A stretch of DNA of 64,000 nt from Escherichia coli. GTDB taxonomy: Bacteria; Pseudomonadota; Gammaproteobacteria; Enterobacterales; Enterobacteriaceae. The notes under the pieces are model-generated. The model searched no databases, was not told the DNA's origin, and saw only the letters and a program-made list of their open reading frames with translations. The stretch lies in NCBI RefSeq assembly GCF_003334765.1, contig NZ_QOWT01000007.1; one strand, written 5' to 3'. A program made the translations under genes and the position numbers. Positions 1 to 63,890 of the stretch are shown piece after piece (position 1 is the first letter of the stretch; each line of letters opens with the position of its first letter).

Positions 1-273
<273 letters not shown>

Positions 274-294
274 TGGCGCTAACCATGCGAGCGT

Positions 295-392
295 GCCTGA
301 TGCGCTACGCTTATCAGGCCTACGAAAATCTTGCAATGTATTGAATTTTCATGATTTTGTAGGCCGGATAAGGCGTTCACGCCGCATCCGGC
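295..392. repeat. REP/RIP (BIME-like) intergenic element: two inverted REP units flanking an AT-rich core
   Basis: GCCTGATGCGCTACGCTTATCAGGCCTAC ... TTGAATTT ... GTAGGCCGGATAAGGCGTTCACGCCGCATCCGGC; a near-identical architecture recurs at 50402-50480. Confidence 0.55.
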
Positions 393-407
393 AAGAAGCT
401 ATAAGAA

Positions 408-438
408 AAGGGCGGAGATCATCTCCGCCCTTTTTATT
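408..438 (+). terminator. Rho-independent terminator downstream of gyrB
   Basis: GC-rich hairpin GGGCGGAGAT/ATCTCCGCCC followed by TTTTTATTT. Confidence 0.6.
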
Positions 439-512
439 TCTGCAATCCGCAATTATCATCCCGCAAATCTATACTTTTTGGGTCAACACGTAACGCTTTA
501 CAGGTGATTATC

Positions 513-911
513 ATGGGGCTTTTTGATGAAGTTGTCGGTGCCTTTCTGAAAGGCGATGCGGGGAAATATCAGGCTATTTTAAGTTGGGTTGAGGAGCAGG
601 GCGGCATTCAGGTGCTGCTGGAAAAACTGCAAAGTGGCGGCTTAGGGGCCATTCTCTCAACCTGGCTGAGTAATCAACAGGGCAATCAATCGGTTAGTGG
701 CGAGCAACTGGAATCGGCGCTCGGCACAAATGCGGTGTCCGATCTCGGGCAAAAACTTGGCGTGGATACCAGTACAGCTTCCATTTTACTGGCAGAACAA
801 TTGCCGAAGATTATTGATGCGCTCTCACCGCAAGGTGAAGTGTCACCACAAGCCAATAACGATCTGCTTTCCGCAGGCATGGAACTGCTGAAAGGGAAAC
901 TCTTCCGCTAA
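513..911 (+). CDS. yidB: DUF937 family protein YidB
   Basis: ORF 504..911; internal ATG at 513 gives 132 aa starting MGLFDEVVGAF, matching remembered YidB; the track start at 504 is GTG. Confidence 0.85.
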   Translation: MGLFDEVVGAFLKGDAGKYQAILSWVEEQGGIQVLLEKLQSGGLGAILSTWLSNQQGNQSVSGEQLESALGTNAVSDLGQKLGVDTSTASILLAEQLPKIIDALSPQGEVSPQANNDLLSAGMELLKGKLFR

Positions 912-1025
912 GCAAAAAGGGAGCACGCAACGCGCGTTGCATCCCCCTTTTCCCTCGGGTGTTGTACTGATTTTTGAGCGGAATCGCGTTAGCATGGGTC
1001 AGGAACCAATCTACCTGGGGAACTC

Positions 1026-1838
1026 ATGGCTATTAAACTCATTGCTATCGATATGGATGGCACCCTTCTGCTGCCCGATCACACCATTTCACCCGCCGTT
1101 AAAAATGCGATTGCCGCAGCTCGCGCCCGTGGCGTGAATGTCGTGCTAACGACGGGTCGCCCGTATGCAGGTGTGCACAACTACCTGAAAGAGCTGCATA
1201 TGGAACAGCCGGGCGACTACTGCATTACTTATAACGGCGCGCTGGTACAGAAGGCCGCTGATGGTAGCACCGTGGCGCAAACTGCTCTCAGCTATGACGA
1301 CTATCGTTTCCTGGAAAAACTCTCTCGCGAAGTCGGTTCTCATTTCCACGCCCTGGACCGCACCACGCTGTACACCGCCAACCGTGATATCAGCTACTAC
1401 ACGGTGCATGAATCCTTCGTTGCCACCATTCCGCTGGTGTTCTGCGAAGCGGAGAAAATGGACCCCAATACCCAGTTCCTGAAAGTGATGATGATTGATG
1501 AACCCGCCATCCTCGACCAGGCTATCGCGCGTATTCCGCAGGAAGTGAAAGAGAAATATACCGTGCTGAAAAGTGCGCCGTACTTCCTCGAAATCCTCGA
1601 TAAACGCGTTAACAAAGGTACGGGGGTGAAATCACTGGCCGACGTGTTAGGTATTAAACCGGAAGAAATCATGGCGATTGGCGATCAGGAAAACGATATC
1701 GCAATGATTGAATATGCAGGCGTCGGTGTGGCGATGGATAACGCTATTCCTTCAGTGAAAGAAGTGGCGAACTTTGTCACCAAATCTAACCTTGAAGATG
1801 GCGTGGCGTTTGCTATTGAGAAGTATGTGCTGAATTAA
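1026..1838 (+). CDS. yidA: HAD-superfamily (Cof-type) sugar phosphatase YidA
   Basis: 270-aa ORF with HAD motif I DMDGTLL near the N-terminus and a Cof-like C-terminal motif GDQENDIAM. Confidence 0.9.
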   Translation: MAIKLIAIDMDGTLLLPDHTISPAVKNAIAAARARGVNVVLTTGRPYAGVHNYLKELHMEQPGDYCITYNGALVQKAADGSTVAQTALSYDDYRFLEKLSREVGSHFHALDRTTLYTANRDISYYTVHESFVATIPLVFCEAEKMDPNTQFLKVMMIDEPAILDQAIARIPQEVKEKYTVLKSAPYFLEILDKRVNKGTGVKSLADVLGIKPEEIMAIGDQENDIAMIEYAGVGVAMDNAIPSVKEVANFVTKSNLEDGVAFAIEKYVLN

Positions 1839-1844
1839 TCTGTG

Positions 1845-1876
1845 GGCGGGCAAACAGCATAAACGCGTTTGCCCGC
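1845..1876. terminator. Bidirectional hairpin between convergent yidA and yidX
   Basis: GGGCGGGCAAAC ... GTTTGCCCGC inverted repeat in the 45-bp gap between the two stop codons. Confidence 0.5.
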
Positions 1877-1883
1877 TTACTGA

Positions 1884-2540
1884 TTATTGGTTTACTGCAT
1901 ATACAACCAGAAATTGCAGCGGTGCAGTAATGATGTCCAGCGTAACAGTCACTGGCAGTAATGCTGCGGAAACACCATCCGGAATGCCTCTGGGTGAATA
2001 GTATTCATAAAATCGCACTTTAAATGGATGGTAGAACGCCATCACCTTTGAGTAATCCATGTTTTTATTTTTCTCATGGATTGTGCCTTTTAGGTTTTCC
2101 AGTGACCTGGTACAGTGTTGAACACCACAGGCAAAACCATAATGCGTTGCCAGTGCCTTTTCTTCTTCGTTATTCCAGTAGTAGTAAAGCGATATTGTGC
2201 CGGTAAATTTCTTTTTCCCCGCATTTAAAACAAATCTTGCGTCATCGGCAACCTGAATATTGTGCCGGTTAAGTGCTGGATCATTGAGCATCTTAACGAT
2301 GTCATCGGCACCATCAGTGATAAGGTAATCCAGCGATTCCCCTACAAAAACATAGCCTTTTGTTCCATTACTATCTTTTGCCTGCGATAGCCCAGTGATG
2401 GTGTCTGACTGCGATTGATACTTTCCTGAACTACCCTTTGCGGTATGGGAAACCAGAGCATACGAGATACAGCCTGAAAGCATCAGCGCCAGTGGGAATA
2501 AACCGGCAGCCTTAAAAAATCCCTTAAAATTCAACTTCAT
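1884..2540 (-). CDS. yidX: Lipoprotein YidX
   Basis: Start moved to the internal ATG giving [24 protein letters not shown] (signal peptide plus lipobox LSGC); 218 aa. Confidence 0.75.
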
Positions 2541-2677
2541 GATTAATCCTTTAAACGAGTAGCTAAGCCGTTGAAAGCATACTCTTCTTTCCCTCCTGTT
2601 TAGCGCCTGATATCCCTTTTCAGATTTCTGCCCGACGCATGTCATTTTTTTATGCATTGTTCTTTTTGTGATCTAAA

Positions 2678-2753
2678 TTGTAGTACAACAATATAAGTTT
2701 GTACTACATTACACGCACGGCAAACGCGAACGTCATCACGCTGGTACTACAAA
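2678..2753. promoter_or_regulatory. Three GTA(G/C)TACA palindromic repeats in the dgo promoter region; candidate DgoR (GntR-family) operators
   Basis: TTGTAGTACAACA (2678-2690), TTTGTACTACATT (2698-2710) and CTGGTACTACAAA (2741-2753), 65-140 bp upstream of the dgoR start. Confidence 0.5.
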
Positions 2754-2817
2754 GTTGCCGCGTTATGCATCGATCGGGGTAAAGTAGAGAAGAACATACA
2801 GAGCACAAGGACTCTCC

Positions 2818-3507
2818 ATGACTCTCAATAAAACCGATCGCATTGTCATTACGCTGGGTAAACAGATCGTTCACGGCAAATACGTGCCAGGCTCGCCGCT
2901 TCCGGCTGAGGCGGAACTCTGTGAGGAGTTTGCAACCTCGCGCAACATCATCCGTGAGGTGTTCCGTTCGCTGATGGCGAAGCGGCTGATTGAAATGAAA
3001 CGTTATCGCGGGGCGTTTGTGGCACCGCGTAACCAGTGGAATTACCTCGACACTGACGTACTGCAATGGGTGCTGGAAAATGACTACGACCCACGGCTTA
3101 TCAGTGCCATGAGCGAAGTGCGAAATCTGGTGGAACCGGCGATTGCCCGTTGGGCAGCAGAGCGCGCGACTTCCAGCGATCTGGCGCAGATTGAATCGGC
3201 GCTGAACGAGATGATTGCCAACAATCAGGACCGCGAAGCGTTTAACGAAGCGGATATTCGCTACCACGAGGCGGTGCTGCAGTCGGTGCATAACCCGGTG
3301 TTACAGCAACTTAGCATTGCGATCAGTTCGCTGCAGCGGGCGGTTTTTGAACGAACCTGGATGGGCGATGAGGCCAACATGCCGCAAACGCTCCAGGAAC
3401 ATAAGGCGCTGTTCGATGCGATACGACATCAGGACGGCGATGCGGCAGAGCAGGCGGCGCTTACCATGATCGCCAGCTCGACACGAAGGTTAAAGGAAAT
3501 CACATGA
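2818..3507 (+). CDS. dgoR: GntR/FadR-family transcriptional repressor of the D-galactonate operon
   Basis: 229-aa ORF with an N-terminal winged-HTH and FadR-like C-domain; first gene of the dgoRKADT cluster. Confidence 0.9.
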   Translation: MTLNKTDRIVITLGKQIVHGKYVPGSPLPAEAELCEEFATSRNIIREVFRSLMAKRLIEMKRYRGAFVAPRNQWNYLDTDVLQWVLENDYDPRLISAMSEVRNLVEPAIARWAAERATSSDLAQIESALNEMIANNQDREAFNEADIRYHEAVLQSVHNPVLQQLSIAISSLQRAVFERTWMGDEANMPQTLQEHKALFDAIRHQDGDAAEQAALTMIASSTRRLKEIT

Positions 3508-4382
3508 CAGCTCGCTACATCGCAATTGACTGGGGATCGACCAATCTGCGCGCCTGGCTTTATCAGGGCGACCACTGCCTGGAGAGCAGGCAATCAGAAG
3601 CAGGCGTCACGCGCCTGAACGGAAAATCTCCGGCTGCGGTGTTAGCAGAAGTCACGACCGACTGGCGTGAAGAGAAAACGCCAGTGGTAATGGCAGGAAT
3701 GGTTGGCAGCAACGTCGGCTGGAAAGTTGCACCGTATTTATCTGTTCCTGCCTGTTTTTCGTCTATTGGCGAACAATTAACGTCAGTTGGCGACAATATC
3801 TGGATTATTCCCGGATTATGTGTCTCTCATGACGATAACCACAATGTGATGCGCGGCGAAGAAACACAATTGATCGGCGCGCGAGCTCTGGCTCCTTCCT
3901 CTCTTTATGTCATGCCCGGAACCCATTGCAAATGGGTGCAGGCCGATAGCCAGCAAATCAACGATTTTCGCACCGTGATGACCGGTGAATTACATCATTT
4001 ACTGTTAAATCACTCATTGATTGGCGCAGGTTTGCCGCCGCAGGAAAACTCTGCCGATGCCTTCACAGCTGGCCTTGAGCGTGGTCTTAATACGCCCGCC
4101 ATATTGCCGCAGCTTTTTGAAGTTCGCGCCTCGCATGTGCTGGGAACACTTCCCCGCGAACAGGTCAGCGAATTTCTCTCTGGTTTGTTGATTGGCGCAG
4201 AGGTCGCCAGTATGCGCGACTATGTGGCCCATCAACACGCCATCACCCTTGTCGCCGGAACATCGCTGACCGCGCGCTACCAGCAAGCCTTTCAGGCGAT
4301 GGGTTGCGACGTGACGGCGGTGGCGGGCGACACGGCATTTCAGGCTGGTATAAGGAGCATCGCTCATGCAGTGGCAAACTAA
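3504..4382 (+). CDS. dgoK: 2-dehydro-3-deoxygalactonokinase
   Basis: 292-aa ORF; start overlaps the dgoR stop (ATGA); position and sequence match DgoK. Confidence 0.9.
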   Translation: MTARYIAIDWGSTNLRAWLYQGDHCLESRQSEAGVTRLNGKSPAAVLAEVTTDWREEKTPVVMAGMVGSNVGWKVAPYLSVPACFSSIGEQLTSVGDNIWIIPGLCVSHDDNHNVMRGEETQLIGARALAPSSLYVMPGTHCKWVQADSQQINDFRTVMTGELHHLLLNHSLIGAGLPPQENSADAFTAGLERGLNTPAILPQLFEVRASHVLGTLPREQVSEFLSGLLIGAEVASMRDYVAHQHAITLVAGTSLTARYQQAFQAMGCDVTAVAGDTAFQAGIRSIAHAVAN

Positions 4383-4983
4383 ACTCCCGCTGATCGCCAT
4401 TTTGCGCGGTATTACGCCCGACGAGGCGCTGGCGCATGTTGGCGCGGTGATTGACGCCGGGTTCGACGCGGTTGAAATCCCGCTGAATTCCCCACAATGG
4501 GAGCAAAGCATTCCCGCCATCGTTGATGCGTACGGCGACAAGGCGTTGATTGGCGCAGGTACGGTACTGAAACCTGAACAGGTCGATGCGCTCGCCAGGA
4601 TGAGCTGTCAGCTCATCGTTACGCCCAATATCCATAGTGAAGTGATCCGCCGTGCGGTGGGCTACGGCATGACCGTCTGCCCCGGCTGCGCGACGGCGAC
4701 CGAAGCCTTTACCGCGCTCGAAGCGGGCGCGCAGGCGCTGAAAATATTTCCGTCATCGGCTTTTGGTCCGCAATACATCAAAGCGTTAAAAGCGGTATTG
4801 CCATCGGACATCGCAGTCTTTGCCGTTGGCGGCGTGACGCCAGAAAACCTGGCGCAGTGGATAGACGCAGGTTGTGCAGGGGCGGGCTTAGGCAGCGATC
4901 TCTATCGCGCCGGGCAATCCGTAGAGCGCACCGCGCAGCAGGCAGCAGCATTTGTTAAGGCGTATCGAGAGGCAGTGCAATGA
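4366..4983 (+). CDS. dgoA: 2-dehydro-3-deoxy-6-phosphogalactonate aldolase
   Basis: 205-aa ORF of the KDPG-aldolase family; overlaps the dgoK 3' end by 17 nt. Confidence 0.9.
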
Positions 4984-6128
4984 AAATCACCAAAATTACC
5001 ACGTATCGTTTACCTCCCCGCTGGATGTTCCTGAAAATTGAAACCGATGAAGGCGTGGTCGGTTGGGGCGAGCCCGTGATCGAAGGCCGCGCCCGTACGG
5101 TGGAAGCGGCAGTTCACGAGCTGGGTGACTATTTGATTGGTCAGGATCCATCGCGCATCAATGACTTATGGCAAGTGATGTATCGCGCCGGATTCTATCG
5201 CGGCGGTCCGATCCTGATGAGCGCCATCGCCGGGATTGACCAGGCGTTATGGGATATCAAAGGTAAAGTGCTGAATGCGCCGGTCTGGCAACTGATGGGC
5301 GGCCTGGTTCGCGACAAAATTAAAGCCTACAGTTGGGTTGGCGGCGATCGTCCGGCGGATGTTATCGACGGCATTAAAACGCTACGCGAAATCGGCTTCG
5401 ATACCTTCAAACTGAACGGTTGTGAAGAACTGGGGCTAATTGATAACTCCCGCGCGGTAGATGCGGCGGTTAACACCGTGGCACAAATTCGTGAAGCTTT
5501 TGGCAATCAGATTGAGTTTGGTCTTGATTTCCACGGTCGCGTCAGCGCGCCGATGGCGAAAGTGCTGATTAAAGAACTGGAGCCGTATCGCCCGCTGTTT
5601 ATTGAGGAGCCGGTGCTGGCGGAACAAGCCGAATACTACCCGAAACTGGCGGCACAAACGCATATTCCACTGGCGGCGGGTGAACGCATGTTCTCACGCT
5701 TCGATTTTAAACGCGTGCTGGAGGCAGGTGGTATTTCGATTCTGCAACCGGATCTCTCCCACGCGGGCGGTATTACCGAATGCTACAAAATCGCCGGAAT
5801 GGCAGAAGCCTATGACGTGACCCTTGCGCCGCACTGTCCGCTCGGACCGATTGCACTGGCGGCTTGCCTGCATATCGACTTTGTTTCCTATAACGCCGTA
5901 CTTCAGGAACAAAGTATGGGAATTCATTACAACAAAGGCGCGGAGTTACTCGACTTTGTGAAAAACAAAGAAGACTTCAGCATGGTCGGCGGCTTCTTTA
6001 AACCGTTAACGAAACCGGGCTTAGGCGTGGAAATCGACGAAGCTAAAGTGATTGAGTTCAGTAAAAATGCCCCGGACTGGCGTAATCCGCTCTGGCGTCA
6101 TGAAGATAACAGCGTAGCAGAGTGGTAA
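4980..6128 (+). CDS. dgoD: D-galactonate dehydratase (enolase superfamily)
   Basis: 382-aa ORF starting [31 protein letters not shown]; ATGA overlap with dgoA. Confidence 0.9.
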
Positions 6129-6247
6129 TTCCTGCCACGTAAGCCCCTCATCGGGCACTAAAACAGCAATACAAAAATATAACCCTCTGTAAATTACAGG
6201 GCATGGTGAGCGGCTTCGCTATGCCCAAAATCTGGAGAAAGCTCGCT

Positions 6248-7540
6248 ATGGATATTCCCGTTAATGCAGCAAAGCCGGGGCGTCGGCGTTATCTGACGCT
6301 GGTGATGATCTTTATTACGGTAGTCATTTGTTATGTCGACCGCGCCAACCTGGCCGTGGCTTCCGCCCATATTCAGGAAGAGTTCGGCATTACCAAAGCG
6401 GAAATGGGCTATGTATTTTCGGCCTTCGCCTGGCTTTATACGCTATGTCAGATCCCCGGCGGTTGGTTTTTAGATCGCGTAGGTTCTCGCGTGACTTATT
6501 TTATTGCGATATTTGGCTGGTCAGTGGCGACTTTATTCCAGGGCTTTGCCACGGGCTTAATGTCATTAATTGGTCTGCGCGCGATAACCGGTATTTTCGA
6601 AGCGCCTGCTTTCCCGACCAATAACCGGATGGTGACCAGCTGGTTCCCGGAACATGAACGCGCTTCTGCCGTTGGTTTTTATACGTCTGGTCAGTTTGTC
6701 GGTCTGGCGTTTCTGACGCCGCTGCTGATCTGGATTCAGGAGATGTTGAGCTGGCACTGGGTGTTCATTGTCACTGGTGGTATCGGCATTATCTGGTCGC
6801 TGATTTGGTTTAAGGTTTATCAGCCGCCGCGCCTGACCAAAGGTATCAGCAAAGCTGAACTGGATTACATTCGTGATGGCGGCGGTCTGGTGGATGGTGA
6901 TGCGCCGGTGAAGAAAGAGGCGCGTCAGCCGTTAACAGCCAAAGACTGGAAACTGGTGTTCCATCGTAAACTGATCGGCGTTTATCTTGGGCAATTTGCG
7001 GTGGCTTCTACACTGTGGTTTTTCTTAACCTGGTTCCCGAACTATTTAACCCAGGAAAAAGGAATCACGGCGCTGAAAGCAGGCTTTATGACCACGGTGC
7101 CATTCCTCGCGGCGTTTGTCGGCGTCCTGCTCTCTGGCTGGGTAGCGGATCTGCTGGTACGTAAGGGCTTTTCACTGGGCTTTGCGCGTAAAACGCCGAT
7201 TATCTGCGGCTTGCTGATCTCCACCTGCATTATGGGCGCTAACTACACTAACGATCCGATGATGATTATGTGCCTGATGGCGCTGGCATTCTTCGGTAAC
7301 GGTTTTGCTTCGATTACCTGGTCGCTGGTTTCTTCTCTGGCACCGATGCGCCTGATTGGTTTAACCGGCGGCGTGTTTAACTTCGCCGGTGGTCTGGGCG
7401 GCATCACCGTTCCGCTGGTGGTGGGGTACCTGGCGCAGGGTTACGGTTTCGCACCTGCACTGGTTTATATCTCCGCCGTCGCGTTGATTGGCGCGCTCTC
7501 TTATATCCTGCTGGTGGGCGATGTGAAGCGCGTTGGCTAA
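6248..7540 (+). CDS. dgoT: D-galactonate:H+ symporter (MFS)
   Basis: ORF 6203..7540; ATG at 6248 gives 430 aa ([15 protein letters not shown]...), matching remembered DgoT length. Confidence 0.85.
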
Positions 7541-8601
7541 TCCTTCAACTGTGGAATATGTGCCACACCACTGCGCATAATCCACTTTCTTAAAGCCGGT
7601 GCGGTCAGGCATCGGCTTTTTACTATCTTGCCGAAGAGTTTTAAACGCAGTTTGCGGGTGGCGCGCCAGTAAGCGGTATTGAGCTTCTCTGGCTGCTTCA
7701 GTAACACCGAACGCAGAATGTCTGTGCTATCCAGCGCATAGCTAATCCCCTCCAGCGAGCTGGCGCTGATAAATCCCGCCGCTTCACCAATCAGAAAGGC
7801 GTTGTCCTTACCGCAGACAAAATCCTGCCAGCGCGAGGGAAACAGCACCGTGCATTTTTCGCTTTTCACCGTCTTACCAAACTGGAACTGAAAGGCGCTC
7901 ATTTTCTCTTTCAGCGTCGTGAAACGCGTCTGACCGTCTTTCATTGGATAGGCACCGCCAAAGATAAAATAACCGTCTTTGCTGATACTCCATGAATAAC
8001 AGTTAGTTATCGAATTATCAAAGATGCAGGAGTAGAACGGCACCGGATGTTTCTCCGCGAACCACTGCTGGATAGCGACATATTTACGGATTTGATGATC
8101 CGGGTAGAGATGTCGCCGCACCATCGAGTTTGCGCCATCGGCACCGACCAGATAGCGGGCGGTAATATGTTGCTCCCAGCCGTCTGCACGAAAAATGACA
8201 TGCCATTTATCATCCTCACGCCAGATTTTTCGGCACAGGCTGTCGTGATAAACCTCAACGCTGGCGGGGATCAGCGATTTCATCCACAAGTCGAAAGCAT
8301 GGCGATTAATATTGATATAGCTTCGCTGGTAGTTACGCGTGAGCGATGCGGCGACGTCGACGGTTTTGACGCTGAAAATCTGCGGATTAGCGATCACATC
8401 GACAGGAAGCGTCAGCCCATCGCGAATAAAAGATCGCTGCGCGTCCGGTGCCAGCAGACCGCCGCAGGGTTTGCTGAAACCTTCAGTACCACACTGGTGC
8501 TTTTTATCCAGCGCGATCACCTGCATTTTGCCTGCTAACTTTCGTGCCAACGCCGATCCTGCCGGGCCGAGGCCAATAATCGCCACGTCGAAATGTTCCA
8601 T
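7537..8601 (-). CDS. cbrA: FAD-dependent oxidoreductase CbrA (colicin E2 tolerance protein, formerly YidS)
   Basis: Start [22 protein letters not shown] (Rossmann GxGxxG), 354 aa; the upstream in-frame GTG/ATG are probably not used. Confidence 0.8.
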
Positions 8602-8668
8602 CTTTTCACTCACATTCATCACGATGGCAAAAGACTATTGTCTGAAAGTGAAGTCCTTGTGAAGTATG

Positions 8669-9916
8669 ATGGCGGGACCCGTTTTGTATCAGGACCGCGC
8701 CATGAAACAGATAACCTTTGCTCCCCGTAATCACCTGCTCACCAATACCAATACCTGGACGCCCGACAGCCAGTGGCTGGTATTTGACGTGCGTCCTTCT
8801 GGCGCGTCGTTTACCGGCGAGACCATTGAGCGTGTGAATATCCATACCGGCGAGGTCGAGGTTATCTATCGCGCGTCACAGGGCGCACACGTCGGCGTGG
8901 TGACCGTTCATCCGAAGTCAGAGAAATATGTTTTCATCCACGGCCCGGAAAATCCTGATGAAACATGGCATTACGACTTCCATCATCGGCGCGGAGTGAT
9001 TGTTGAAGGCGGCAAGATGAGTAACCTTGATGCGATGGATATTACCGCGCCGTATACGCCAGGAGTGCTGCGCGGCGGCAGCCATGTGCATGTCTTTAGC
9101 CCGAACGGTGAAAGGGTGAGCTTTACCTATAACGATCATGTAATGCATGAACTCGATCCGGCGCTGGATTTGCGAAACGTCGGTGTTGCTGCGCCGTTTG
9201 GCCCGGTCAACGTACAAAAGCAGCATCCGCGTGAATACAGCGGTAGCCACTGGTGCGTGCTGGTGAGCAAAACCACGCCCACGCCACAGCCTGGCAGTGA
9301 TGAAATCAATCGTGCTTATGAAGAAGGATGGGTAGGAAATCACGCGCTGGCATTTATTGGCGACACACTTTCGCCAAAGGGCGAGAAAGTGCCGGAGCTG
9401 TTTATCGTTGAGTTACCGCAAGATGAAGCTGGCTGGAAAGCGGCAGGTGATGCGCCGTTAAGCGGAACGGAAACAACCCTGCCCGCGCCACCGCGTGGCG
9501 TCGTGCAGCGACGTTTAACCTTTACCCACCATCGGGCTTATCCGGGGTTAGTCAACGTCCCGCGCCACTGGGTGCGCTGTAATCCGCAGGGTACACAAAT
9601 CGCGTTTTTAATGCGAGATGATAACGGCATTGTGCAACTGTGGCTTATCTCGCCACAGGGCGGCGAGCCGCGCCAGTTAACCCATAACAAAACGGATATT
9701 CAGTCTGCATTTAACTGGCATCCGTCAGGAGAATGGTTGGGCTTTGTGCTGGATAATCGAATTGCTTGTGCCCATGCGCAAAGCGGCGAGGTTGAGTATT
9801 TAACCGAACACCACGCCAATTCACCTTCTGCGGACGCCGTGGTCTTCTCGCCGGATGGTCAGTGGCTGGCGTGGATGGAAGGCGGCCAGCTGTGGATCAC
9901 CGAAACTGATCGCTAA
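8669..9916 (+). CDS. yidR: Uncharacterized protein YidR (DUF3748, beta-propeller-like)
   Basis: 415 aa from the second ATG; sequence recognised as YidR. Confidence 0.75.
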   Translation: MAGPVLYQDRAMKQITFAPRNHLLTNTNTWTPDSQWLVFDVRPSGASFTGETIERVNIHTGEVEVIYRASQGAHVGVVTVHPKSEKYVFIHGPENPDETWHYDFHHRRGVIVEGGKMSNLDAMDITAPYTPGVLRGGSHVHVFSPNGERVSFTYNDHVMHELDPALDLRNVGVAAPFGPVNVQKQHPREYSGSHWCVLVSKTTPTPQPGSDEINRAYEEGWVGNHALAFIGDTLSPKGEKVPELFIVELPQDEAGWKAAGDAPLSGTETTLPAPPRGVVQRRLTFTHHRAYPGLVNVPRHWVRCNPQGTQIAFLMRDDNGIVQLWLISPQGGEPRQLTHNKTDIQSAFNWHPSGEWLGFVLDNRIACAHAQSGEVEYLTEHHANSPSADAVVFSPDGQWLAWMEGGQLWITETDR

Positions 9917-9917
9917 A

Positions 9918-10250
9918 TCAGTTATCAGGCATTCTGGCCGGTGGAATAACCGCATTGGTGGCTTGCGCGTTGGCTTCGCTTTTTTCAACGCGCGAGCGCA
10001 CCGAGCTGTCTTTGCGGAACACATCCCACGGCAGTAAAAGCGTGTCCATCACAGCGGTAAACGGCATATCGAGAATCGCCAGCGACTTAGTGCCCCAGTT
10101 GGTTTCATCGTCGCCAATCATGGTTGCGCTGGCGCGGGTGCCGGGATACGTTCCTTCTTTCCCTCCGGTATGGGACATCACGCTGGAGCATCCTCCGAGT
10201 AATGTCATTCCGCTGCATATCATGAACGCTAACAACACATTTCTTATCAT
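9918..10250 (-). CDS. yidQ: Putative lipoprotein YidQ (DUF1375)
   Basis: Start MIRNVLLAFMICSGMTLLGGCSS (signal peptide plus lipobox), 110 aa; the track ORF is extended upstream. Confidence 0.7.
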   Translation of the reverse strand: MIRNVLLAFMICSGMTLLGGCSSVMSHTGGKEGTYPGTRASATMIGDDETNWGTKSLAILDMPFTAVMDTLLLPWDVFRKDSSVRSRVEKSEANAQATNAVIPPARMPDN

Positions 10251-10423
10251 AATAAATTCATCTGTTGATCGTGGGTGTTGGCCTGATGAGTTATAGCGAT
10301 CCCTTGCTGAAAATAACATCATCATTACGTCGCACTGTGGCGGCTATCGCACTTTAACGTTTCGTGCTGCCCCCTCAGTCTATGCAATAGACCATAAACT
10401 GCAAAAAAAAGTCCGCTGATAAG

Positions 10424-10453
10424 GCTTGAAAAGTTCATTTCCAGACCCATTTT
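10424..10453 (+). promoter_or_regulatory. Sigma-32 heat-shock promoter of ibpAB
   Basis: CTTGAAA (10424-10430) and CCCATTTT (10446-10453) match the sigma-32 consensus CTTGAAA / CCCCATNT. Confidence 0.5.
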
Positions 10454-10459
10454 TACATC

Positions 10460-10555
10460 GTAGCCGATGAGGACGCGCCTGATGGGTGTTCTGGCTACCT
10501 GACCTGTCCATTGTGGAAGGTCTTACATTCTCGCTGATTTCAGGAGCTATTGATT
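10460..10555 (+). promoter_or_regulatory. ibpA 5' UTR (ROSE-like RNA thermometer region)
   Basis: About 95-nt leader between the sigma-32 promoter and the ibpA ATG, ending in SD AGGAGC; ibpA is a described RNA-thermometer-controlled gene. Confidence 0.45.
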
Positions 10556-10969
10556 ATGCGTAACTTTGATTTATCCCCGCTTTACCGTTCTGCTATTGGA
10601 TTTGACCGTTTGTTTAACCACTTAGAAAACAACCAGAGCCAGAGTAATGGCGGCTACCCTCCGTATAACGTTGAACTGGTAGACGAAAACCATTACCGCA
10701 TTGCTATCGCTGTGGCTGGTTTTGCTGAGAGCGAACTGGAAATTACCGCCCAGGATAATCTGCTGGTGGTGAAAGGTGCTCACGCCGACGAACAAAAAGA
10801 GCGCACCTATCTGTACCAGGGCATCGCTGAACGCAACTTTGAACGCAAATTCCAGTTAGCTGAGAACATTCATGTTCGTGGTGCTAACCTGGTAAATGGT
10901 TTGCTGTATATCGATCTCGAACGCGTGATTCCGGAAGCGAAAAAACCGCGCCGTATCGAAATCAACTAA
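10556..10969 (+). CDS. ibpA: Small heat shock protein IbpA
   Basis: 137 aa starting [24 protein letters not shown]; alpha-crystallin domain; the track start at 10550 is TTG. Confidence 0.95.
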
Positions 10970-11080
10970 TTCCCTAAGGCCGCCTGGCGCGGCCTGACAT
11001 CTCCATGCTCGCCGTCAGGGAGCATATGCGAATCTTCGGATTTGCAGGTACTTACTCGCTTCTTAGAAGGAGAAATGACT

Positions 11081-11509
11081 ATGCGTAACTTCGATTTATC
11101 CCCACTGATGCGTCAATGGATCGGTTTTGACAAACTGGCCAACGCACTGCAAAACGCCGGTGAAAGCCAGAGCTTCCCGCCGTACAACATTGAGAAAAGC
11201 GACGATAACCACTACCGCATTACCCTTGCGCTGGCAGGTTTCCGTCAGGAAGATTTAGAGATTCAACTGGAAGGTACGCGCCTGAGCGTAAAAGGCACGC
11301 CGGAGCAGCCAAAAGAAGAGAAAAAATGGCTGCATCAAGGGCTTATGAATCAGCCATTTAGCCTGAGCTTTACGCTGGCTGAAAATATGGAAGTCTCTGG
11401 CGCAACCTTCGTAAACGGTTTACTGCATATTGATTTAATTCGTAATGAGCCTGAACCCATCGCAGCGCAGCGTATCGCTATCAGCGAACGTCCCGCGTTA
11501 AATAGCTAA
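11081..11509 (+). CDS. ibpB: Small heat shock protein IbpB
   Basis: 142 aa from the ATG at 11081 ([24 protein letters not shown]); paralog of IbpA. Confidence 0.9.
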
Positions 11510-11523
11510 CTAGCTATTCTCTT

Positions 11524-11552
11524 TGCCCCGCCATTCTGGTGGGGCTTTTTTT
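11524..11552 (+). terminator. Rho-independent terminator of ibpAB
   Basis: GCCCCGCCA ... GGTGGGGC hairpin followed by TTTTTTTTG. Confidence 0.6.
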
Positions 11553-11704
11553 GTCTTACTTACTCAACAATGCGTTAAATTTCGACTGTTTAAGATATTT
11601 CGGCACGTTCTTTCCCGTGATAATGTGCGCTATAAGGCAAATCTGCTTCACCGATTCAGCCATAATCCGTAGCAATTAAAATGTTATCTCAAGAGAAATG
11701 GACG

Positions 11705-13366
11705 ATGAGTGATATAGCATTAACGGTCAGTATTCTGGCTTTGGTGGCAGTCGTCGGTTTGTTTATCGGCAACGTCAAATTTCGCGGCATAGGATTAGGT
11801 ATTGGCGGCGTGCTGTTTGGTGGGATCATCGTCGGCCATTTTGTTTCTCAGGCGGGGATGACATTAAGTAGCGATATGCTGCATGTTATTCAGGAATTTG
11901 GCCTGATCCTGTTCGTTTATACTATCGGGATTCAGGTAGGGCCGGGCTTCTTTGCCTCATTGCGCGTCTCCGGATTACGCCTCAACCTGTTTGCTGTTCT
12001 GATCGTCATCATCGGTGGTCTGGTTACCGCCATCCTGCATAAACTGTTTGATATTCCACTGCCGGTAGTGCTGGGGATTTTCTCCGGTGCGGTTACCAAT
12101 ACGCCAGCGCTGGGGGCAGGGCAGCAGATTTTGCGCGACCTGGGTACACCAATGGAAATGGTCGATCAGATGGGGATGAGTTACGCGATGGCGTATCCAT
12201 TCGGCATTTGCGGGATTTTGTTCACCATGTGGATGTTGCGGGTTATTTTCCGCGTCAATGTCGAGACAGAAGCTCAGCAGCACGAGTCTTCACGCACCAA
12301 TGGCGGCGCGCTGATCAAGACTATCAATATTCGCGTTGAGAACCCTAACCTGCATGATTTAGCCATTAAAGATGTACCGATTCTCAACGGCGACAAAATT
12401 ATCTGCTCGCGTCTGAAACGCGAAGAAACCCTAAAAGTTCCTTCGCCAGATACCATTATCCAACTGGGCGATTTGCTGCATCTGGTGGGTCAGCCAGCGG
12501 ATTTACATAATGCGCAACTGGTGATTGGTCAGGAGGTCGATACTTCGCTGTCCACGAAAGGCACTGATTTGCGCGTCGAGCGTGTGGTGGTCACCAATGA
12601 AAACGTGCTCGGAAAACGTATTCGCGACCTGCACTTTAAAGAACGCTATGACGTTGTTATCTCGCGCCTGAACCGTGCCGGGGTCGAACTGGTCGCCAGT
12701 GGCGATATCAGCCTGCAGTTCGGCGATATCCTCAATCTGGTGGGGCGTCCGTCCGCAATTGATGCCGTTGCCAATGTGCTGGGGAATGCGCAGCAAAAAC
12801 TGCAACAGGTTCAGATGCTGCCAGTGTTTATTGGCATCGGGCTAGGCGTATTGTTAGGTTCTATTCCCGTCTTTGTGCCAGGATTCCCGGCCGCGTTGAA
12901 ACTGGGGCTGGCGGGCGGACCGCTGATTATGGCGTTGATCCTCGGGCGTATCGGCAGTATCGGCAAGCTGTACTGGTTTATGCCGCCAAGCGCCAACCTC
13001 GCGCTGCGGGAGCTGGGGATCGTGCTGTTCCTCTCGGTCGTTGGTCTGAAATCTGGTGGGGATTTTGTGAATACCCTGGTCAATGGCGAAGGGCTAAGCT
13101 GGATTGGTTATGGTGCCCTGATCACCGCCGTTCCGCTGATTACTGTTGGCATTCTGGCGCGGATGTTAGCCAAAATGAATTACCTGACCATGTGCGGGAT
13201 GCTGGCAGGTTCCATGACCGATCCTCCGGCGCTGGCGTTTGCTAATAATCTTCATCCAACCAGCGGTGCGGCGGCGCTCTCTTACGCCACTGTCTATCCG
13301 TTGGTAATGTTCCTGCGCATTATCACCCCCCAATTACTGGCGGTGCTCTTCTGGAGTATCGGTTAA
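11705..13366 (+). CDS. yidE: Putative transporter YidE (AAE family, two TrkA-C domains)
   Basis: 553 aa from the ATG at 11705 ([20 protein letters not shown]...). Confidence 0.85.
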
Positions 13367-14079
13367 CTCTTTTCCGGGTGGAGTCGCCGTAAATGGTACT
13401 CCACCTGGTATTCGCTGGCATTTCTGAACATCACTGAATAATTCAAAAACTCCCCGCTCTCGCTATATGACAACGAGGTGATCCGCAGCAGTGGCGTGTG
13501 TTCCGCTACCTTCATTTGCCGCGCCAGCAGTCTATCGGCGAGCACTGGCGTCAGGCTTTCATAATTACCGCCAATCAAAATCCCGCACTCTTGTTCAATA
13601 TATTCAAACTTCGACCCTTCCAGATGTTGCAGCGAAAGATTACGGAACAGTTTTACCGGCATATAGCTGTCTTCCAGCATCAGCGGTTTCCCTTCCACAA
13701 AACGAACGCGACGGGAGAAGTAGATCTGCTCGTTGATTTGAATCCGTAACTGGCTGGCAATGGCCGGAGGCGCAGGCATGATTTCAAAAATCAGCACCTG
13801 GCTGGTGACCGTTTTTCCCTGCCGTTTTAACACCTCCACCAGCCCGGTCAGACTGGCGGTTTGATGCAGTACATCTTTGCGCACCAGGTAAGTGCCACTA
13901 CCGTGGCGGCGGACCACCAGCCCCCACGCTACCAGCAGGTCAATGGCTTTACGGATGGTCATCCGCGATACCGCAAACTCTTCCGCCAGCTTTTTTTCAC
14001 CGGGAAGAAGGCTGTTTAGCGTGAAATCTGCGGAGTTAAGTCGAATTCTTAACCGCTCCGCAATGCTTTTGTAGATCAT
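13363..14079 (-). CDS. yidP: GntR/HutC-family transcriptional regulator YidP
   Basis: 238 aa from [45 protein letters not shown] (HTH) with a UTRA-like C-domain; the track ORF is extended upstream. Confidence 0.8.
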
Positions 14080-14374
14080 CTCTAGATCTCTTTTTTGCCT
14101 GCAAGCCCGGGTAATGCGCACACAAGTTCTGCTTAATCGATTGAAAAAACATCTTTTTTTTAAAGATGTGTTCGATGCTGTGTACCTGTGCTCACAGAGG
14201 TCTACTTTTTCGCGAAAACGTAGATCTCTACCGCCCAACGAAAAGCATGAAAGCGATCACGAATCCCATTGGGTCGTCATGTTCTGCCGATCGCATCTTC
14301 CTATCCTCGCTCCAGGCCTGCCGCATAACCAATCAGGCTTCCTACTTACAGAATTGAGAAAAGAGGATGTGGAA

Positions 14375-17695
<3,321 letters not shown>

Positions 17696-17861
17696 TTTAA
17701 TATCCCTCCGGCGAATTATGCTCACAACCTGAACTTAACAGAAAACAATCCGTTCAGGGATACGACGTTTGTATTTTAAGAATCTGACTGCCTGACCCGA
17801 CGCATTTTACCTCTCCCTATATTCATGCGTCCGGGACATAAACATAAATAAGGGCTATGAG

Positions 17862-19814
17862 ATGAATTCGTTACAAATCTTGAGTTTTGTCGGTTTTACG
17901 CTGCTGGTGGCGGTGATCACCTGGTGGAAGGTCCGCAAAACAGATACCGGATCGCAACAAGGCTATTTTCTTGCCGGACGTTCACTAAAAGCGCCGGTTA
18001 TTGCCGCTTCGTTAATGCTAACCAACCTTTCCACGGAACAACTGGTCGGCCTTTCCGGGCAGGCCTACAAAAGCGGCATGTCGGTGATGGGCTGGGAAGT
18101 GACTTCAGCGGTGACGCTGATCTTCCTCGCGCTAATCTTTTTACCGCGCTATCTGAAGCGCGGCATTGCCACCATCCCCGATTTTCTGGAGGAACGTTAT
18201 GATAAAACGACGCGTATTATCATCGACTTCTGCTTCCTAATTGCCACCGGCGTCTGCTTTCTGCCGATTGTTCTCTACTCCGGCGCGTTGGCGCTCAACA
18301 GCCTGTTTCACGTCGGGGAATCGCTACAGATTTCTCACGGTGCGGCTATCTGGCTACTGGTAATTTTGCTTGGTCTGGCGGGAATTTTGTATGCGGTGAT
18401 CGGCGGACTGCGCGCAATGGCAGTGGCGGACTCCATCAACGGTATTGGGCTGGTTATCGGCGGGTTGATGGTGCCGGTATTTGGCCTGATCGCGATGGGC
18501 AAGGGCAGCTTTATGCAGGGCATTGAGCAACTCACCACCGTTCACGCCGAGAAATTAAACTCAATCGGTGGCCCGACCGATCCCTTGCCGATTGGCGCGG
18601 CATTTACCGGTTTGATTCTGGTGAACACCTTTTACTGGTGTACAAATCAGGGCATCGTGCAACGCACGCTGGCGTCAAAAAGCCTGGCGGAAGGGCAAAA
18701 GGGGGCGCTGTTAACGGCGGTGCTGAAAATGCTCGACCCGCTGGTACTGGTGCTGCCAGGGTTGATTGCGTTTCATCTGTATCAGGATTTACCGAAAGCC
18801 GACATGGCCTACCCGACGCTGGTCAATAACGTTCTGCCAGTGCCAATGGTGGGTTTCTTCGGCGCGGTGTTATTTGGTGCGGTGATCAGTACCTTCAACG
18901 GCTTTCTGAATAGCGCCAGTACGTTATTCAGTATGGGTATTTACCGTCGCATCATTAACCAGAATGCCGAGCCGCAGCAGCTGGTCACCGTCGGGCGCAA
19001 ATTTGGTTTCTTTATCGCTATCGTTTCGGTGCTGGTCGCGCCGTGGATCGCCAACGCGCCGCAGGGGCTGTATAGCTGGATGAAACAGCTCAACGGCATT
19101 TACAACGTGCCGCTGGTTACCATCATCATTATGGGCTTTTTCTTCCCGCGCATCCCGGCGCTGGCGGCAAAAGTAGCGATGGGGATTGGCATAATCAGCT
19201 ACATCACCATCAACTATCTGGTGAAGTTCGACTTCCATTTCCTCTATGTGCTGGCCTGTACGTTCTGCATCAACGTGGTCGTGATGCTGGTGATCGGTTT
19301 TATCAAACCGCGCGCCACGCCGTTCACCTTCAAAGATGCGTTTGCGGTGGACATGAAACCGTGGAAAAACGTCAAGATCGCGTCAATTGGCATCCTGTTC
19401 GCGATGATTGGCGTCTATGCCGGGCTGGCTGAATTCGGCGGCTACGGTACGCGCTGGTTAGCGATGATCAGTTATTTCATTGCCGCCGTAGTGATTGTCT
19501 ACCTGATTTTTGACAGCTGGCGGCGGAAGGTATTCGCTTTAATTCCGCCTACACCTGTTCACCGGTTTGTACGCCTGCACGGGCCGGACTATTTACCGGT
19601 ATCTACGCTAACCAGTCCGGCCCGTGGACCAACAACGTCGCGCCAGGCAAAAACATCTCCACTATGGGGCGCTACTTTAAGGATGCCGGCTATCACACCT
19701 GTTACATCGGCAAATGGCATCTCGACGGTCATGACTATTTCGGCACTGGCGAGTGTCCGCCGGAGTGGGACGCTGATTACTGGTTCGATGGGGCGAACTA
19801 TCTTAGCGAACTGA
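17862..19814 (+). CDS. yidK: SSS-family Na+/solute symporter YidK with an aberrant 3' end (reads out of frame into sulfatase DNA)
   Basis: Multi-TM transporter sequence to about codon 550 (...AAVVIVYLIFDSW), then about 100 codons of Pro/Arg/Ser/Thr-rich sequence overlapping the sulfatase gene in another frame; native end probably lost. Confidence 0.7.
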   Translation: MNSLQILSFVGFTLLVAVITWWKVRKTDTGSQQGYFLAGRSLKAPVIAASLMLTNLSTEQLVGLSGQAYKSGMSVMGWEVTSAVTLIFLALIFLPRYLKRGIATIPDFLEERYDKTTRIIIDFCFLIATGVCFLPIVLYSGALALNSLFHVGESLQISHGAAIWLLVILLGLAGILYAVIGGLRAMAVADSINGIGLVIGGLMVPVFGLIAMGKGSFMQGIEQLTTVHAEKLNSIGGPTDPLPIGAAFTGLILVNTFYWCTNQGIVQRTLASKSLAEGQKGALLTAVLKMLDPLVLVLPGLIAFHLYQDLPKADMAYPTLVNNVLPVPMVGFFGAVLFGAVISTFNGFLNSASTLFSMGIYRRIINQNAEPQQLVTVGRKFGFFIAIVSVLVAPWIANAPQGLYSWMKQLNGIYNVPLVTIIIMGFFFPRIPALAAKVAMGIGIISYITINYLVKFDFHFLYVLACTFCINVVVMLVIGFIKPRATPFTFKDAFAVDMKPWKNVKIASIGILFAMIGVYAGLAEFGGYGTRWLAMISYFIAAVVIVYLIFDSWRRKVFALIPPTPVHRFVRLHGPDYLPVSTLTSPARGPTTSRQAKTSPLWGATLRMPAITPVTSANGISTVMTISALASVRRSGTLITGSMGRTILAN

Positions 19815-55764: not shown

Positions 55765-58942
<3,178 letters not shown>

Positions 58943-59233
58943 GGTTCTCTCCCTAAAAATCTGTCTGGCAGGGTAGCGATTTGTGCGTATTGTCACGATT
59001 GAGATTTTTTAAGGTGAGAGGAAATTGATAACTTGTAGTTATGTGAAATCGCTATTTTCTGTAGCGTAGATGCATTCTTCTGACTTCTTGTCTGAGAAAA
59101 TGCATAAGAAAAAATAGGTTAAAATTGAGGGGTGGAAAAGAAAGGTGCAATGTTTAGCCATTGTGTTCACCGCACCTGGACTTTGGCTTACGCATCGGGT
59201 ATCTCAATCAACAAAAAGAGTTTTTAGTTTCTG

Positions 59234-63431: not shown

Positions 63432-63890
63432 TTACTGACGACCAGAGTGACCAAAGCCGCCTTCACCGCGGTCGGTGGCGTCGAAATCTTCCACCAGATT
63501 AAATTCAGCCTGTACTACCGGAACAAAAATCATCTGGGCGATGCGTTCGCCAGGTTGAATGGTGAAGCTGTCCTGACCACGGTTCCACACGGAAATCATC
63601 AACTGGCCCTGATAGTCGGAATCGATCAATCCTACCAGGTTACCAAGCACGATACCGTGCTTATGTCCCAATCCGGAGCGCGGCAGCATCATTGCCGCCA
63701 GTGAAGGATCGGCAATATGAATCGCCAGCCCGGTCGGAACCAGCGTAGTGTCACCCGGAGCCAGTTCTACGGCGTCGTCGAGACAGGCACGCAGGTCAAG
63801 TCCGGCAGAGCCAGAGGTGGCATAAGTCGGGAGCGGAAATTCCTTCCCAACGCGCGGGTCCAGAATCTTAACGTCGATTTTTTTCATCAT
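63432..63890 (-). CDS. dut: dUTP diphosphatase
   Basis: 152 aa starting [15 protein letters not shown]; ends ...GGFGHSGRQ. Confidence 0.9.

Follow-up and report, generated by a model that had tools for sequence, protein, structure and literature searches.

Four-nucleotide shared stop codons of four convergent gene pairs in a 64-kb Escherichia coli segment, with terminator-like hairpins inside the partner genes

From the sequences of the stop codons alone, an overlap of 1–3 nt between two facing stops is impossible, and at 4 nt only the tetramers [C/T]TA[A/G] (YTAR) can occur: wherever TAA or TAG is preceded by a pyrimidine, the other strand, one base over, also reads TAA or TAG. Such 4-nt convergent stop overlaps have reportedly been the subject of further work by Fukuda in 2003, Johnson and Chisholm in 2004, and Kingsford in 2007. 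Lillo & Krakauer (2007, PMC2174442) described a jump in the number of convergent pairs at an overlap length of 4, with CTAA, TTAA, CTAG, and TTAG as its four-base sequences, and among the convergent overlaps of E. coli (n = 58), they reported predicted rho-independent terminators within the coding sequence of the partner in 21. A second system that resembles the present one is arfA/mscL (PMC10070815), a TTAA overlap in which a strong stem-loop past one stop lies in the 3' coding sequence of the other gene, as it does here, and in which the intergenic distance varies among Enterobacterales, as it does for the pairs described below. The arfA stem-loop, however, is a proven RNase III site that yields a non-stop mRNA together with an antisense regulator, whereas neither processing nor regulation of this kind is known for our four pairs. 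Convergent 3' ends that overlap around a stem-loop of unclassic form, again as here, have also been described as bidirectional terminators or sites of polymerase collision by Ju et al. (2019), as summarized in bioRxiv 10.1101/2022.10.23.513370; in that summary, the elements are intergenic and act both ways, whereas the hairpins reported here have no intergenic space and are U-tailed in one direction.

The window analyzed here (the whole stretch of DNA, 64 kb in length) is an E. coli chromosomal segment that runs from gyrB to dut. Its identity to the MG1655 record NZ_CP032667.1 is 99.97% over the first 19.5 kb and 99.46% over the remainder, with one 159-bp deletion, and because of this close identity, gene names could be transferred from the RefSeq annotation. 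Both the sequence and the list of open reading frames place the two stops of four convergent pairs within a single tetranucleotide.

7537-7540, CTAA: dgoT stop TAA at 7538-7540 (+ strand), cbrA stop TAG as the complement of 7537-7539; listed ORFs 6203-7540 (+) and 7537-8622 (-)
13363-13366, TTAA: yidE stop TAA (+ strand), yidP stop TAA (- strand); listed ORFs 11681-13366 (+) and 13363-14238 (-)
16802-16805, TTAA: glvG (pseudogene) stop TAA (+ strand), yidL stop TAA (- strand); listed ORFs 16593-16805 (+) and 16802-17725 (-)
58325-58328, TTAG: ligB stop TAG (+ strand), yicG stop TAA (- strand); listed ORFs 56640-58328 (+) and 58325-58996 (-)

The initial annotation had named these four pairs, and its gene names, coordinates, and tetranucleotides agreed with the sequence, the ORF list, and RefSeq, in which the genes of all four pairs of MG1655 (NZ_CP032667.1) have the same ends. 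In every case, the genes lie on opposite strands tail to tail, the shared letters are [C/T]TA[A/G], and the stops are TAA or TAG, with no TGA. Seven of the eight genes match curated NCBIfam family models, mostly near full length, and the eighth, glvG, is a pseudogene here and intact in other species with the same 4-nt overlap. In strand arrangement, TAA/TAG stops, tetramers, the commonest convergent length, and the presence of terminators in the partner coding sequence, the pairs correspond to the YTAR class (PMC2174442), and nothing essential differs; what is added here are the cross-species histories and a YidL-type protein tail that is the antisense of the glvG hairpin. The four overlaps are an already described, annotated kind of convergent gene overlap, and the commonest one.

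The initial annotation had further held that overlapping stops leave no room for separate terminators, and this part did not stand, because at every junction a strong terminator-like stem-loop lies past one of the two stops, inside the ORF of the partner. We folded the 120 nt 3' of each stop and ranked the results among all 40-nt windows of both strands across the 64 kb. The coding sequences and the stem-loops are as follows.

6203-7540, + strand: dgoT, D-galactonate MFS transporter, final gene of the dgoRKADT block
7537-8601, - strand: cbrA, FAD-dependent lipid reductase
7551-7629, + strand: two stem-loops in the dgoT 3' region, within the last ~28 cbrA codons
7551-7585, + strand: first dgoT stem-loop
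7592-7619, + strand: second dgoT stem-loop, 11-bp stem AAAGCCGGUGC/GCAUCGGCUUU followed by UUACUAUCUU
11705-13366, + strand: yidE, AAE-family transporter
13363-14079, - strand: yidP, GntR/HutC-type regulator
13374-13408, + strand: yidE stem-loop with a 14-bp stem, 8 nt 3' of the yidE stop, within yidP codons ~224-235
15991-16805, + strand: glvG-type 6-phospho-alpha-glucosidase pseudogene, frameshifted
16802-17695, - strand: yidL, AraC-type regulator, its last ~12 residues beyond the family domain
16808-16850, + strand: glvG hairpin resembling an intrinsic terminator, its 16-bp stem (16808-16842) leading into UUCUUUAG, located 3 nt 3' of the glvG stop
56646-58328, + strand: ligB, NAD-dependent DNA ligase B
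58325-58942, - strand: yicG, TRIC-type channel family
58270-58305, - strand: yicG terminator-like hairpin, 20 nt past the yicG stop, within the last ~18 ligB codons

There is one strong stem-loop per junction (-18 to -24 kcal/mol, in the top 0.02-0.5% of the window), located 5-55 nt past the stop of one gene and within the last 2-28 codons of its partner. The hairpin-bearing genes are dgoT, yidE, glvG, and yicG, and the regions 3' of their partners, judged by the best 40-nt fold ≤100 nt past the stop, are ordinary. The best 40-nt folds are -18.4 kcal/mol 3' of dgoT (top 0.54% of the window; z = -3.77 for the 120-nt fold) against just -9.2 downstream of cbrA, -24.2 3' of yidE (top 0.02%; fold z = -2.90) against -14.2 downstream of yidP, -20.6 3' of glvG (top 0.18%) against -10.4 downstream of yidL, and -18.6 3' of yicG (top 0.48%) against -14.2 downstream of ligB. 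At a random position, a fold at least as stable as -18.4 kcal/mol is found in either direction 8.8% of the time, and at all four junctions with a probability of ~6e-5. The same one-sided hairpin also occurs at pairs of the window that nearly abut, yidR/yidQ (+1), nlpA/yicL (+3), and yidF/emrD (+7; positive values are gaps and negative values overlaps), and at four of the six -4 junctions of the background sample described below.

The anatomy of an embedded intrinsic terminator, a G+C-rich stem with a U tract soon after the stop, is found 3' of glvG, yicG, and dgoT. The yicG hairpin has a 9-bp stem with 7 G-C pairs (58305 to 58280) followed by UUCUUGAUUU, and in the second dgoT stem-loop, a run of five U's spans the end of the stem and the tail and is followed by ACUAUCUU; the same U run coincides with Lys-Lys codons of cbrA. 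The yidE stem is the strongest of the four junctions, yet its tail is weak in U (UAUUCGCU), and because of this weak tail, it more likely represents a 3'-end stem or a pause site than a classic terminator. None of the four junctions has the form of a bidirectional intrinsic terminator, given that there is no intergenic space, the hairpins lie past one stop only, and the tails in the reverse direction are U-poor. A consensus terminator scan found only the yicG hairpin at these junctions and missed those of dgoT, glvG, and yidE, the first two probably since extension of the stem consumes the U's and the third because its U tail is too weak. From their sequence and position, the hairpins may terminate or stabilize transcripts in vivo.

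Published bicyclomycin data also speak against the view that separate termination is precluded, as on the strands of yidE and yicG they place Rho termination within the facing gene. We used the bicyclomycin DirectRNA-seq table of Rho termination regions in Supplementary file 2 of Adams et al. (2021, PMC7815308), with window positions converted to NC_000913.3 coordinates via gyrB and the mapping verified on the ibpB, dgoD, pyrE, and spoT rows of that table. One region, at 3864468 (-) (Rho score 4.0, p 2e-13), is antisense to yidP and falls 144 nt beyond the yidE stop, and another, at 3819922 (+) (Rho score 18.3, p 3e-56), is antisense to ligB and falls 431 nt beyond the yicG stop; the regions resolve to ~800 nt, and their transcripts need not begin at yidE or yicG. 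These bicyclomycin-sensitive "antisense" regions within yidP and ligB are of the kind described in that study for Rho termination of antisense or untranslated RNA, whereas the dgoT/cbrA and glvG/yidL junctions, and the cbrA, yidP, yidL, and ligB strands, are without entries. The 3'-end mapping that the initial annotation had suggested is answered in part by published data: Rho regions are listed for the yidE and yicG strands and for none of the other six, and no curated Term-seq 3' ends lie at the four junctions or the hairpins in PMC7815308, probably because of low expression in LB and M63. The published 3'-end tables that were searched list no entries for cbrA, dgoT, yidL, yicG, yidE, glv, dut, or dfp. 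Downstream of yidE, yidP, yidL, and yicG are stretches whose excess of C over G ranks among the top 1% of the window; they agree with Rho loading on rut-like RNA but are unspecific, and the check does not discriminate, since richness in C is general in RNA that is antisense to coding sequence.

Comparison across species gave each junction its own history. A single scan for yidE relatives returned 80 Enterobacteriaceae loci, each spanning three of the junctions (all but ligB/yicG), in which orthologues and their stops were located by script; the conservation of ligB/yicG was traced via YicG homologues. In this strain, glvG is a dead gene, the frame that ends at 16805 being open for 95 codons only, but other species with the -4 overlap have an intact glvG. 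Among 14 species, glvG and yidL overlap by -4 in five and by -7 in two and are separated by +7 to +82 in six, and the one other locus (Dryocola, -495) probably represents a pseudogene or an artefact. In Escherichia, Citrobacter, Klebsiella, and Kluyvera, all with the -4 overlap, a hairpin of the form GACCGGCATCC-NNN-GGGTGCCGGTC lies 3' of the glvG stop; Enterobacter sp. JUb54 (glvG/yidL +45) has this hairpin too, but between the two genes. AraC-family profiles end at YidL residues 280-288 of 297. In species with a gap, the YidL C terminus extends 2-7 residues beyond the conserved ...APSAVLK, whereas in the -4 species, YidL has a tail of 12-13 residues (xxDRHPxDAGQxx) that is the glvG hairpin read on the other strand. 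This provides direct evidence that the yidL ORF has extended through the glvG terminator until halted by the glvG stop codon.

The dgoT/cbrA junction is also labile. The second dgoT hairpin is kept within Escherichia and is not clearly conserved outside it. In five Citrobacter species, the overlap is again -4, but CbrA is 14-18 codons longer there, and cbrA crosses a different G+C-rich hairpin, directly 3' of the dgoT stop, before it reaches that stop. In E. whittamii, a synonymous change from GGC to GGG in the last dgoT codon abolishes the CTA stop of cbrA, such that CbrA gains 12 residues and the overlap grows to 40 nt. E. albertii has GGA and likewise 12 extra CbrA codons, with only a 3' remnant of dgoT left; in Escherichia sp. 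E1V33, CTAA is kept and dgoT is reduced to a 3' remnant.

The yidE/yidP junction is highly labile, with a range from -54 to +352: the overlap is -33 in 22 species, -44 in five, -54 in three, and -21 and -6 in two each, the remaining loci lie between 0 and +352, and -4 is confined to E. albertii, Phytobacter diazotrophicus, Kluyvera cryocrescens, and one metagenome genome. A stem-loop 8-10 nt 3' of the yidE stop is nevertheless kept in most of the genera and loci compared. A single pair of the stem covaries (CG 13, UG 12, UA 9, GC 2), and 74% of cells are paired compared with 27-48% in slid controls, although YidP coding also constrains the 3' arm; the covariation is suggestive rather than decisive and is confounded by this coding constraint.

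The ligB/yicG junction, in contrast to these three, keeps its length. The overlap is -4 in five other genera, with TTAA in Citrobacter, CTAA in Salmonella, CTAA in Leclercia, CTAG in Kluyvera, and TTAA in Cedecea, and all four YTAR variants occur among the ligB/yicG junctions. The last YicG residue is always His (CAY), which is the source of the pyrimidine, and the last LigB codon is always NNY. Citrobacter and Salmonella both retain the yicG hairpin within ligB, where GGG/CCC has changed to GAG/CUC in a compensatory manner. In Enterobacter ludwigii, which is without ligB, the yicG stop is TGA, and a hairpin and T run of the classic kind lie 3' of it in the intergenic space.

The window also holds one same-strand overlap, of the type found in operons.

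63868-63890, - strand: 23-nt overlap of coaBC (dfp) and dut, coaBC stop TAA at 63868-63870, dut ATG at 63890-63888

That dfp and dut are co-directional and overlap by about 23 nt had been noted in the initial annotation, and both the sequence and the RefSeq annotation of MG1655 bear this out; dut begins with ATGATG, and use of the second ATG (63887-63885) as the start would give an overlap of 20 nt. The downstream start lies within the upstream ORF on the same strand, and the 23-nt arrangement recurs in each of the five genera whose gene calls were usable (Citrobacter, Leclercia, Kluyvera, Cedecea, and, as Enterobacter ludwigii, Enterobacter). Short, translationally coupled operon overlaps (Huber et al. 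2023, PMC10666635) are likewise co-directional, and coaBC/dut is conserved as a pair as they are, but they typically measure -4 and -1 nt, whereas coaBC/dut measures 23 nt. It is a separate, conserved operon-type overlap. The conservation check that had been suggested for the overlaps thus divides them: ligB/yicG and dfp/dut are conserved, whereas dgoT/cbrA, yidE/yidP, and glvG/yidL are labile.

Considering these results together, we favor, with a probability of roughly 0.8, the reading that these are ordinary YTAR overlaps in which an ORF has been trapped at the stop of its neighbor, a stem-loop is embedded in its tail, and transcription ends inside the partner. An ORF facing a gene that ends in YTAA or YTAG, if it enters in the right frame and meets no earlier stop, would be halted at the stop of the neighbor. 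The genes dgoT, yidE, glvG, and yicG would keep their own 3' stem-loops, and cbrA, yidP, yidL, and ligB would read through to the shared tetranucleotide; as the partner ORF crosses the stem-loop, part of its C-terminal tail becomes an antisense translation of the terminator region of the neighbor. The hairpin-bearing transcript would still end at the embedded hairpin, inside the partner gene, and the transcripts that read through it, as well as, we infer, those of cbrA, yidP, yidL, and ligB, would be ended by Rho on untranslated, C-rich antisense RNA. Once reached, the overlap would be "sticky," because a change from pyrimidine to purine at either flank lengthens a protein, which may account for the retention of ligB/yicG, and its easy loss at the other three junctions may follow from the tail being dispensable there. 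Passive trapping is the best-supported reading of the mechanism.

A more ambitious proposal, which we consider doubtful, is that the hairpins are of dual use, each acting as the terminator or 3' stabilizer of one gene and as an antisense or RNase III switch that couples the regulator on the opposite strand to an operon for sugar use or transport; hairpin-encoded tails of the YidL type would then be a recurrent, evolvable by-product, and terminator capture a general route to 4-nt overlaps. The pairs named for this proposal are glvG-yidL, yidE-yidP, and rhaT-rhaR, and its model is arfA-mscL, whose type of complementarity (a 3' UTR against the structured 3' coding sequence of the partner) is present, judging from the anatomy, at the junctions studied here.

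Loci of the "excludon" type are a precedent for overlap-based cross-regulation, and the overlaps might themselves be selected devices, the complementary 3' ends allowing the pairs to regulate each other by antisense pairing with RNase III cleavage or by polymerase collision. This is the main rival reading, and we judge it unlikely. Antisense regulation of mscL by the stem-loop in the 3' coding sequence of arfA is published (PMC10070815), and in RefSeq, arfA/mscL is itself a 4-nt TTAA overlap, whose strong hairpin lies within arfA, immediately 3' of the mscL stop; a collision model of termination between convergent genes exists as well (bioRxiv 10.1101/2022.10.23.513370). A transporter or sugar gene faces a transcription regulator in yidE/yidP, glvG/yidL, and the background pair rhaT/rhaR, and ligB/yicG holds its -4 overlap in Citrobacter, Salmonella, Leclercia, Kluyvera, and Cedecea despite the use of all four YTAR variants, so that its persistence across six genera, Escherichia included, could reflect selection instead of a neutral trap. 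On the other hand, only one of the four junctions conserves its length (yidE/yidP ranges from -54 to +352, glvG/yidL from -7 to +82, and dgoT/cbrA is either -4 or -40), entire partners have been deleted without replacement in close relatives, and this strain already carries glvG as a pseudogene. Moreover, any convergent pair with read-through yields complementary RNAs, and complementarity alone is no sign of function. Because of the three labile junctions, the deletions in relatives, and the glvG pseudogene, selected cross-regulation is disfavored as a general explanation relative to passive trapping.

We also consider it very improbable that four overlaps in 64 kb mark a special region, such as one scarred by repeated insertion and deletion of gene blocks. 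As a background, we sampled ten 50-kb stretches (500 kb) of the MG1655 annotation around the chromosome. Of 79 convergent pairs in this sample, six have a -4 overlap (arfA/mscL, srsR/scpC, yfgJ/xseA, yeiW/setB, rnhA/yafS, and rhaT/rhaR, all six TTAA) and five have longer overlaps, which extrapolates to ~56 -4 pairs per MG1655 genome (95% interval 20-121). Convergent pairs number 15 in the window, whereas the sample averages ~10 for the same length of 64 kb, and four of the 15 are -4 compared with six of 79 (Fisher p = 0.05); against 0.77 expected, the Poisson probability of at least four in 64 kb is 0.008, and ~0.57 windows this rich in -4 overlaps are expected per genome. The local excess is mild and, given the number of windows and the post hoc choice of this one, unremarkable; with statistics this marginal, the notion of an overlap hot spot was dropped. 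Members of Escherichia do differ in whether they carry the dgo and yidP-glv blocks, but the end points of these deletions lie off the shared tetranucleotides: genomes without dgo carry a deletion that ends at window positions ~2677 and 7426 and keep a 114-nt dgoT remnant, and Escherichia without the yidP-glv block lack window positions 13467-16831 and retain 100 nt of the yidP 3' end. Because these dgoT and yidP 3' remnants persist, the overlaps predate the rearrangements. We had also considered the TTAA sites that flank yidP-glvCBG as scars of an inserted island, a reading that was rejected because the 13467-16831 deletion leaves a yidP remnant. Finally, that the overlaps are annotation artefacts, from a wrong stop or an ORF that is not a gene, is scarcely credible, because even though glvG is frameshifted here and the dut start could be the second ATG, the stop codons are unambiguous, the family models match all of the genes but glvG, and orthologues in other genera end alike (ligB/yicG and the intact glvG/yidL).

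As a discovery, the four overlaps carry little weight: they are annotated, their class is textbook, and the window is mildly enriched. The additions are small, namely the hairpin-encoded YidL tail, the CbrA end altered by a synonymous dgoT change, and the Rho regions for two of the four pairs. Overall, the results correct one point, in that a 4-nt overlap of stop codons does not abolish the terminator; a terminator-like hairpin can lie within the C-terminal codons of the neighbor, and as a consequence, the ends of such proteins can be evolutionary accidents, as in the tail of YidL, a mirror of the glvG hairpin, and in the 12 residues that CbrA gains through a silent change in dgoT. In practice, this bears on the annotation of C termini, on the design of clean deletions of convergent genes, and on the choice of loci in which to look for antisense regulation at 3' ends.

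Three further convergent gene pairs in the window nearly abut, and their ends are separated by gaps of 1, 3, and 7 nt.

Near-abutting convergent pairs (window positions)
yidR/yidQ, 9916/9918, convergent, gap of 1 nt; hairpin of -21.8 kcal/mol, one-sided
nlpA/yicL, 38644/38648, convergent, gap of 3 nt; hairpin of -24.1 kcal/mol, one-sided
yidF/emrD, 22705/22713, convergent, gap of 7 nt; hairpin of -22.5 kcal/mol, with -19.0 reached on the other strand too

In all three cases, the strong hairpin lies past the stop of the plus-strand gene and within the coding end of its partner, and these pairs share the anatomy of the 4-nt overlaps. In the MG1655 background samples (L089-L098), TTAA is used by each of the six 4-nt convergent overlaps, and in several of these pairs (rhaT/rhaR, srsR/scpC, and arfA/mscL), the gene of a transporter or an enzyme is joined to that of a regulator or a small protein.

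Comparison of the window with MG1655 revealed that 159 bp of the latter (19525-19683 of its segment L001), flanked by two 8-bp direct repeats (CTGGCGGC), are absent at 19510-19524, the yidK/yidJ junction. With this deletion, yidK has lost its stop codon and yidJ its start codon, and a yidK-derived ORF of 650 codons (17862-19814) remains, which enters yidJ out of frame. Because the identical junction is found in several further complete E. coli genomes (e.g. FORC 064, ML35, and an O157:H16 strain), the deletion is a natural polymorphism. Identity to MG1655 is 99.97% in window 1-19524 compared with 99.46% in 19510-64000, and the step falls exactly at the deletion point, suggesting a recombination boundary and, in turn, a non-K-12 origin of the window, with a left part that is K-12-like.

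Whole gene blocks are missing from relatives, as seen when loci L003, L005, L006, and L004 were compared with window 13467-16831 and ∼2677-7426. In E. coli E69, E. whittamii, and Escherichia sp. E1V33, a clean deletion has removed most of yidP together with glvCBG and the final 27 nt of yidL, leaving yidE and yidL convergent across a gap of 74-89 nt. The dgo operon is deleted in Escherichia sp. E1V33, E. albertii, and E. coli E69, and a 114-nt dgoT remnant is left in the first two. An Enterobacteriaceae-type yidE-yidP-glv-yidL locus (L021) was also found on contig CACSKA010000004.1, labelled 'Chryseobacterium sp. 18061'; its YidE is 85% identical to that of E. coli, and the contig is closely similar to 'Citrobacter sp. 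18056', which belongs to the same project. Probably, the label is wrong or the culture was mixed.

In Salmonella enterica GCA_017844855.1 (locus L084), nearly all genes surrounding yicG (ligB, spoT, trmH, and recG) are in fragments, a pattern that resembles an assembly rich in indels more than genuine pseudogenes. The CTAA junction of yicG and ligB can still be read. In Enterobacter ludwigii (locus L088), ligB is missing from its usual place downstream of yicG at 8618. The stop codon of yicG is TGA here, and an intergenic hairpin with a T run comes after it. This locus is a natural example of yicG with a conventional terminator when the convergent partner is absent.
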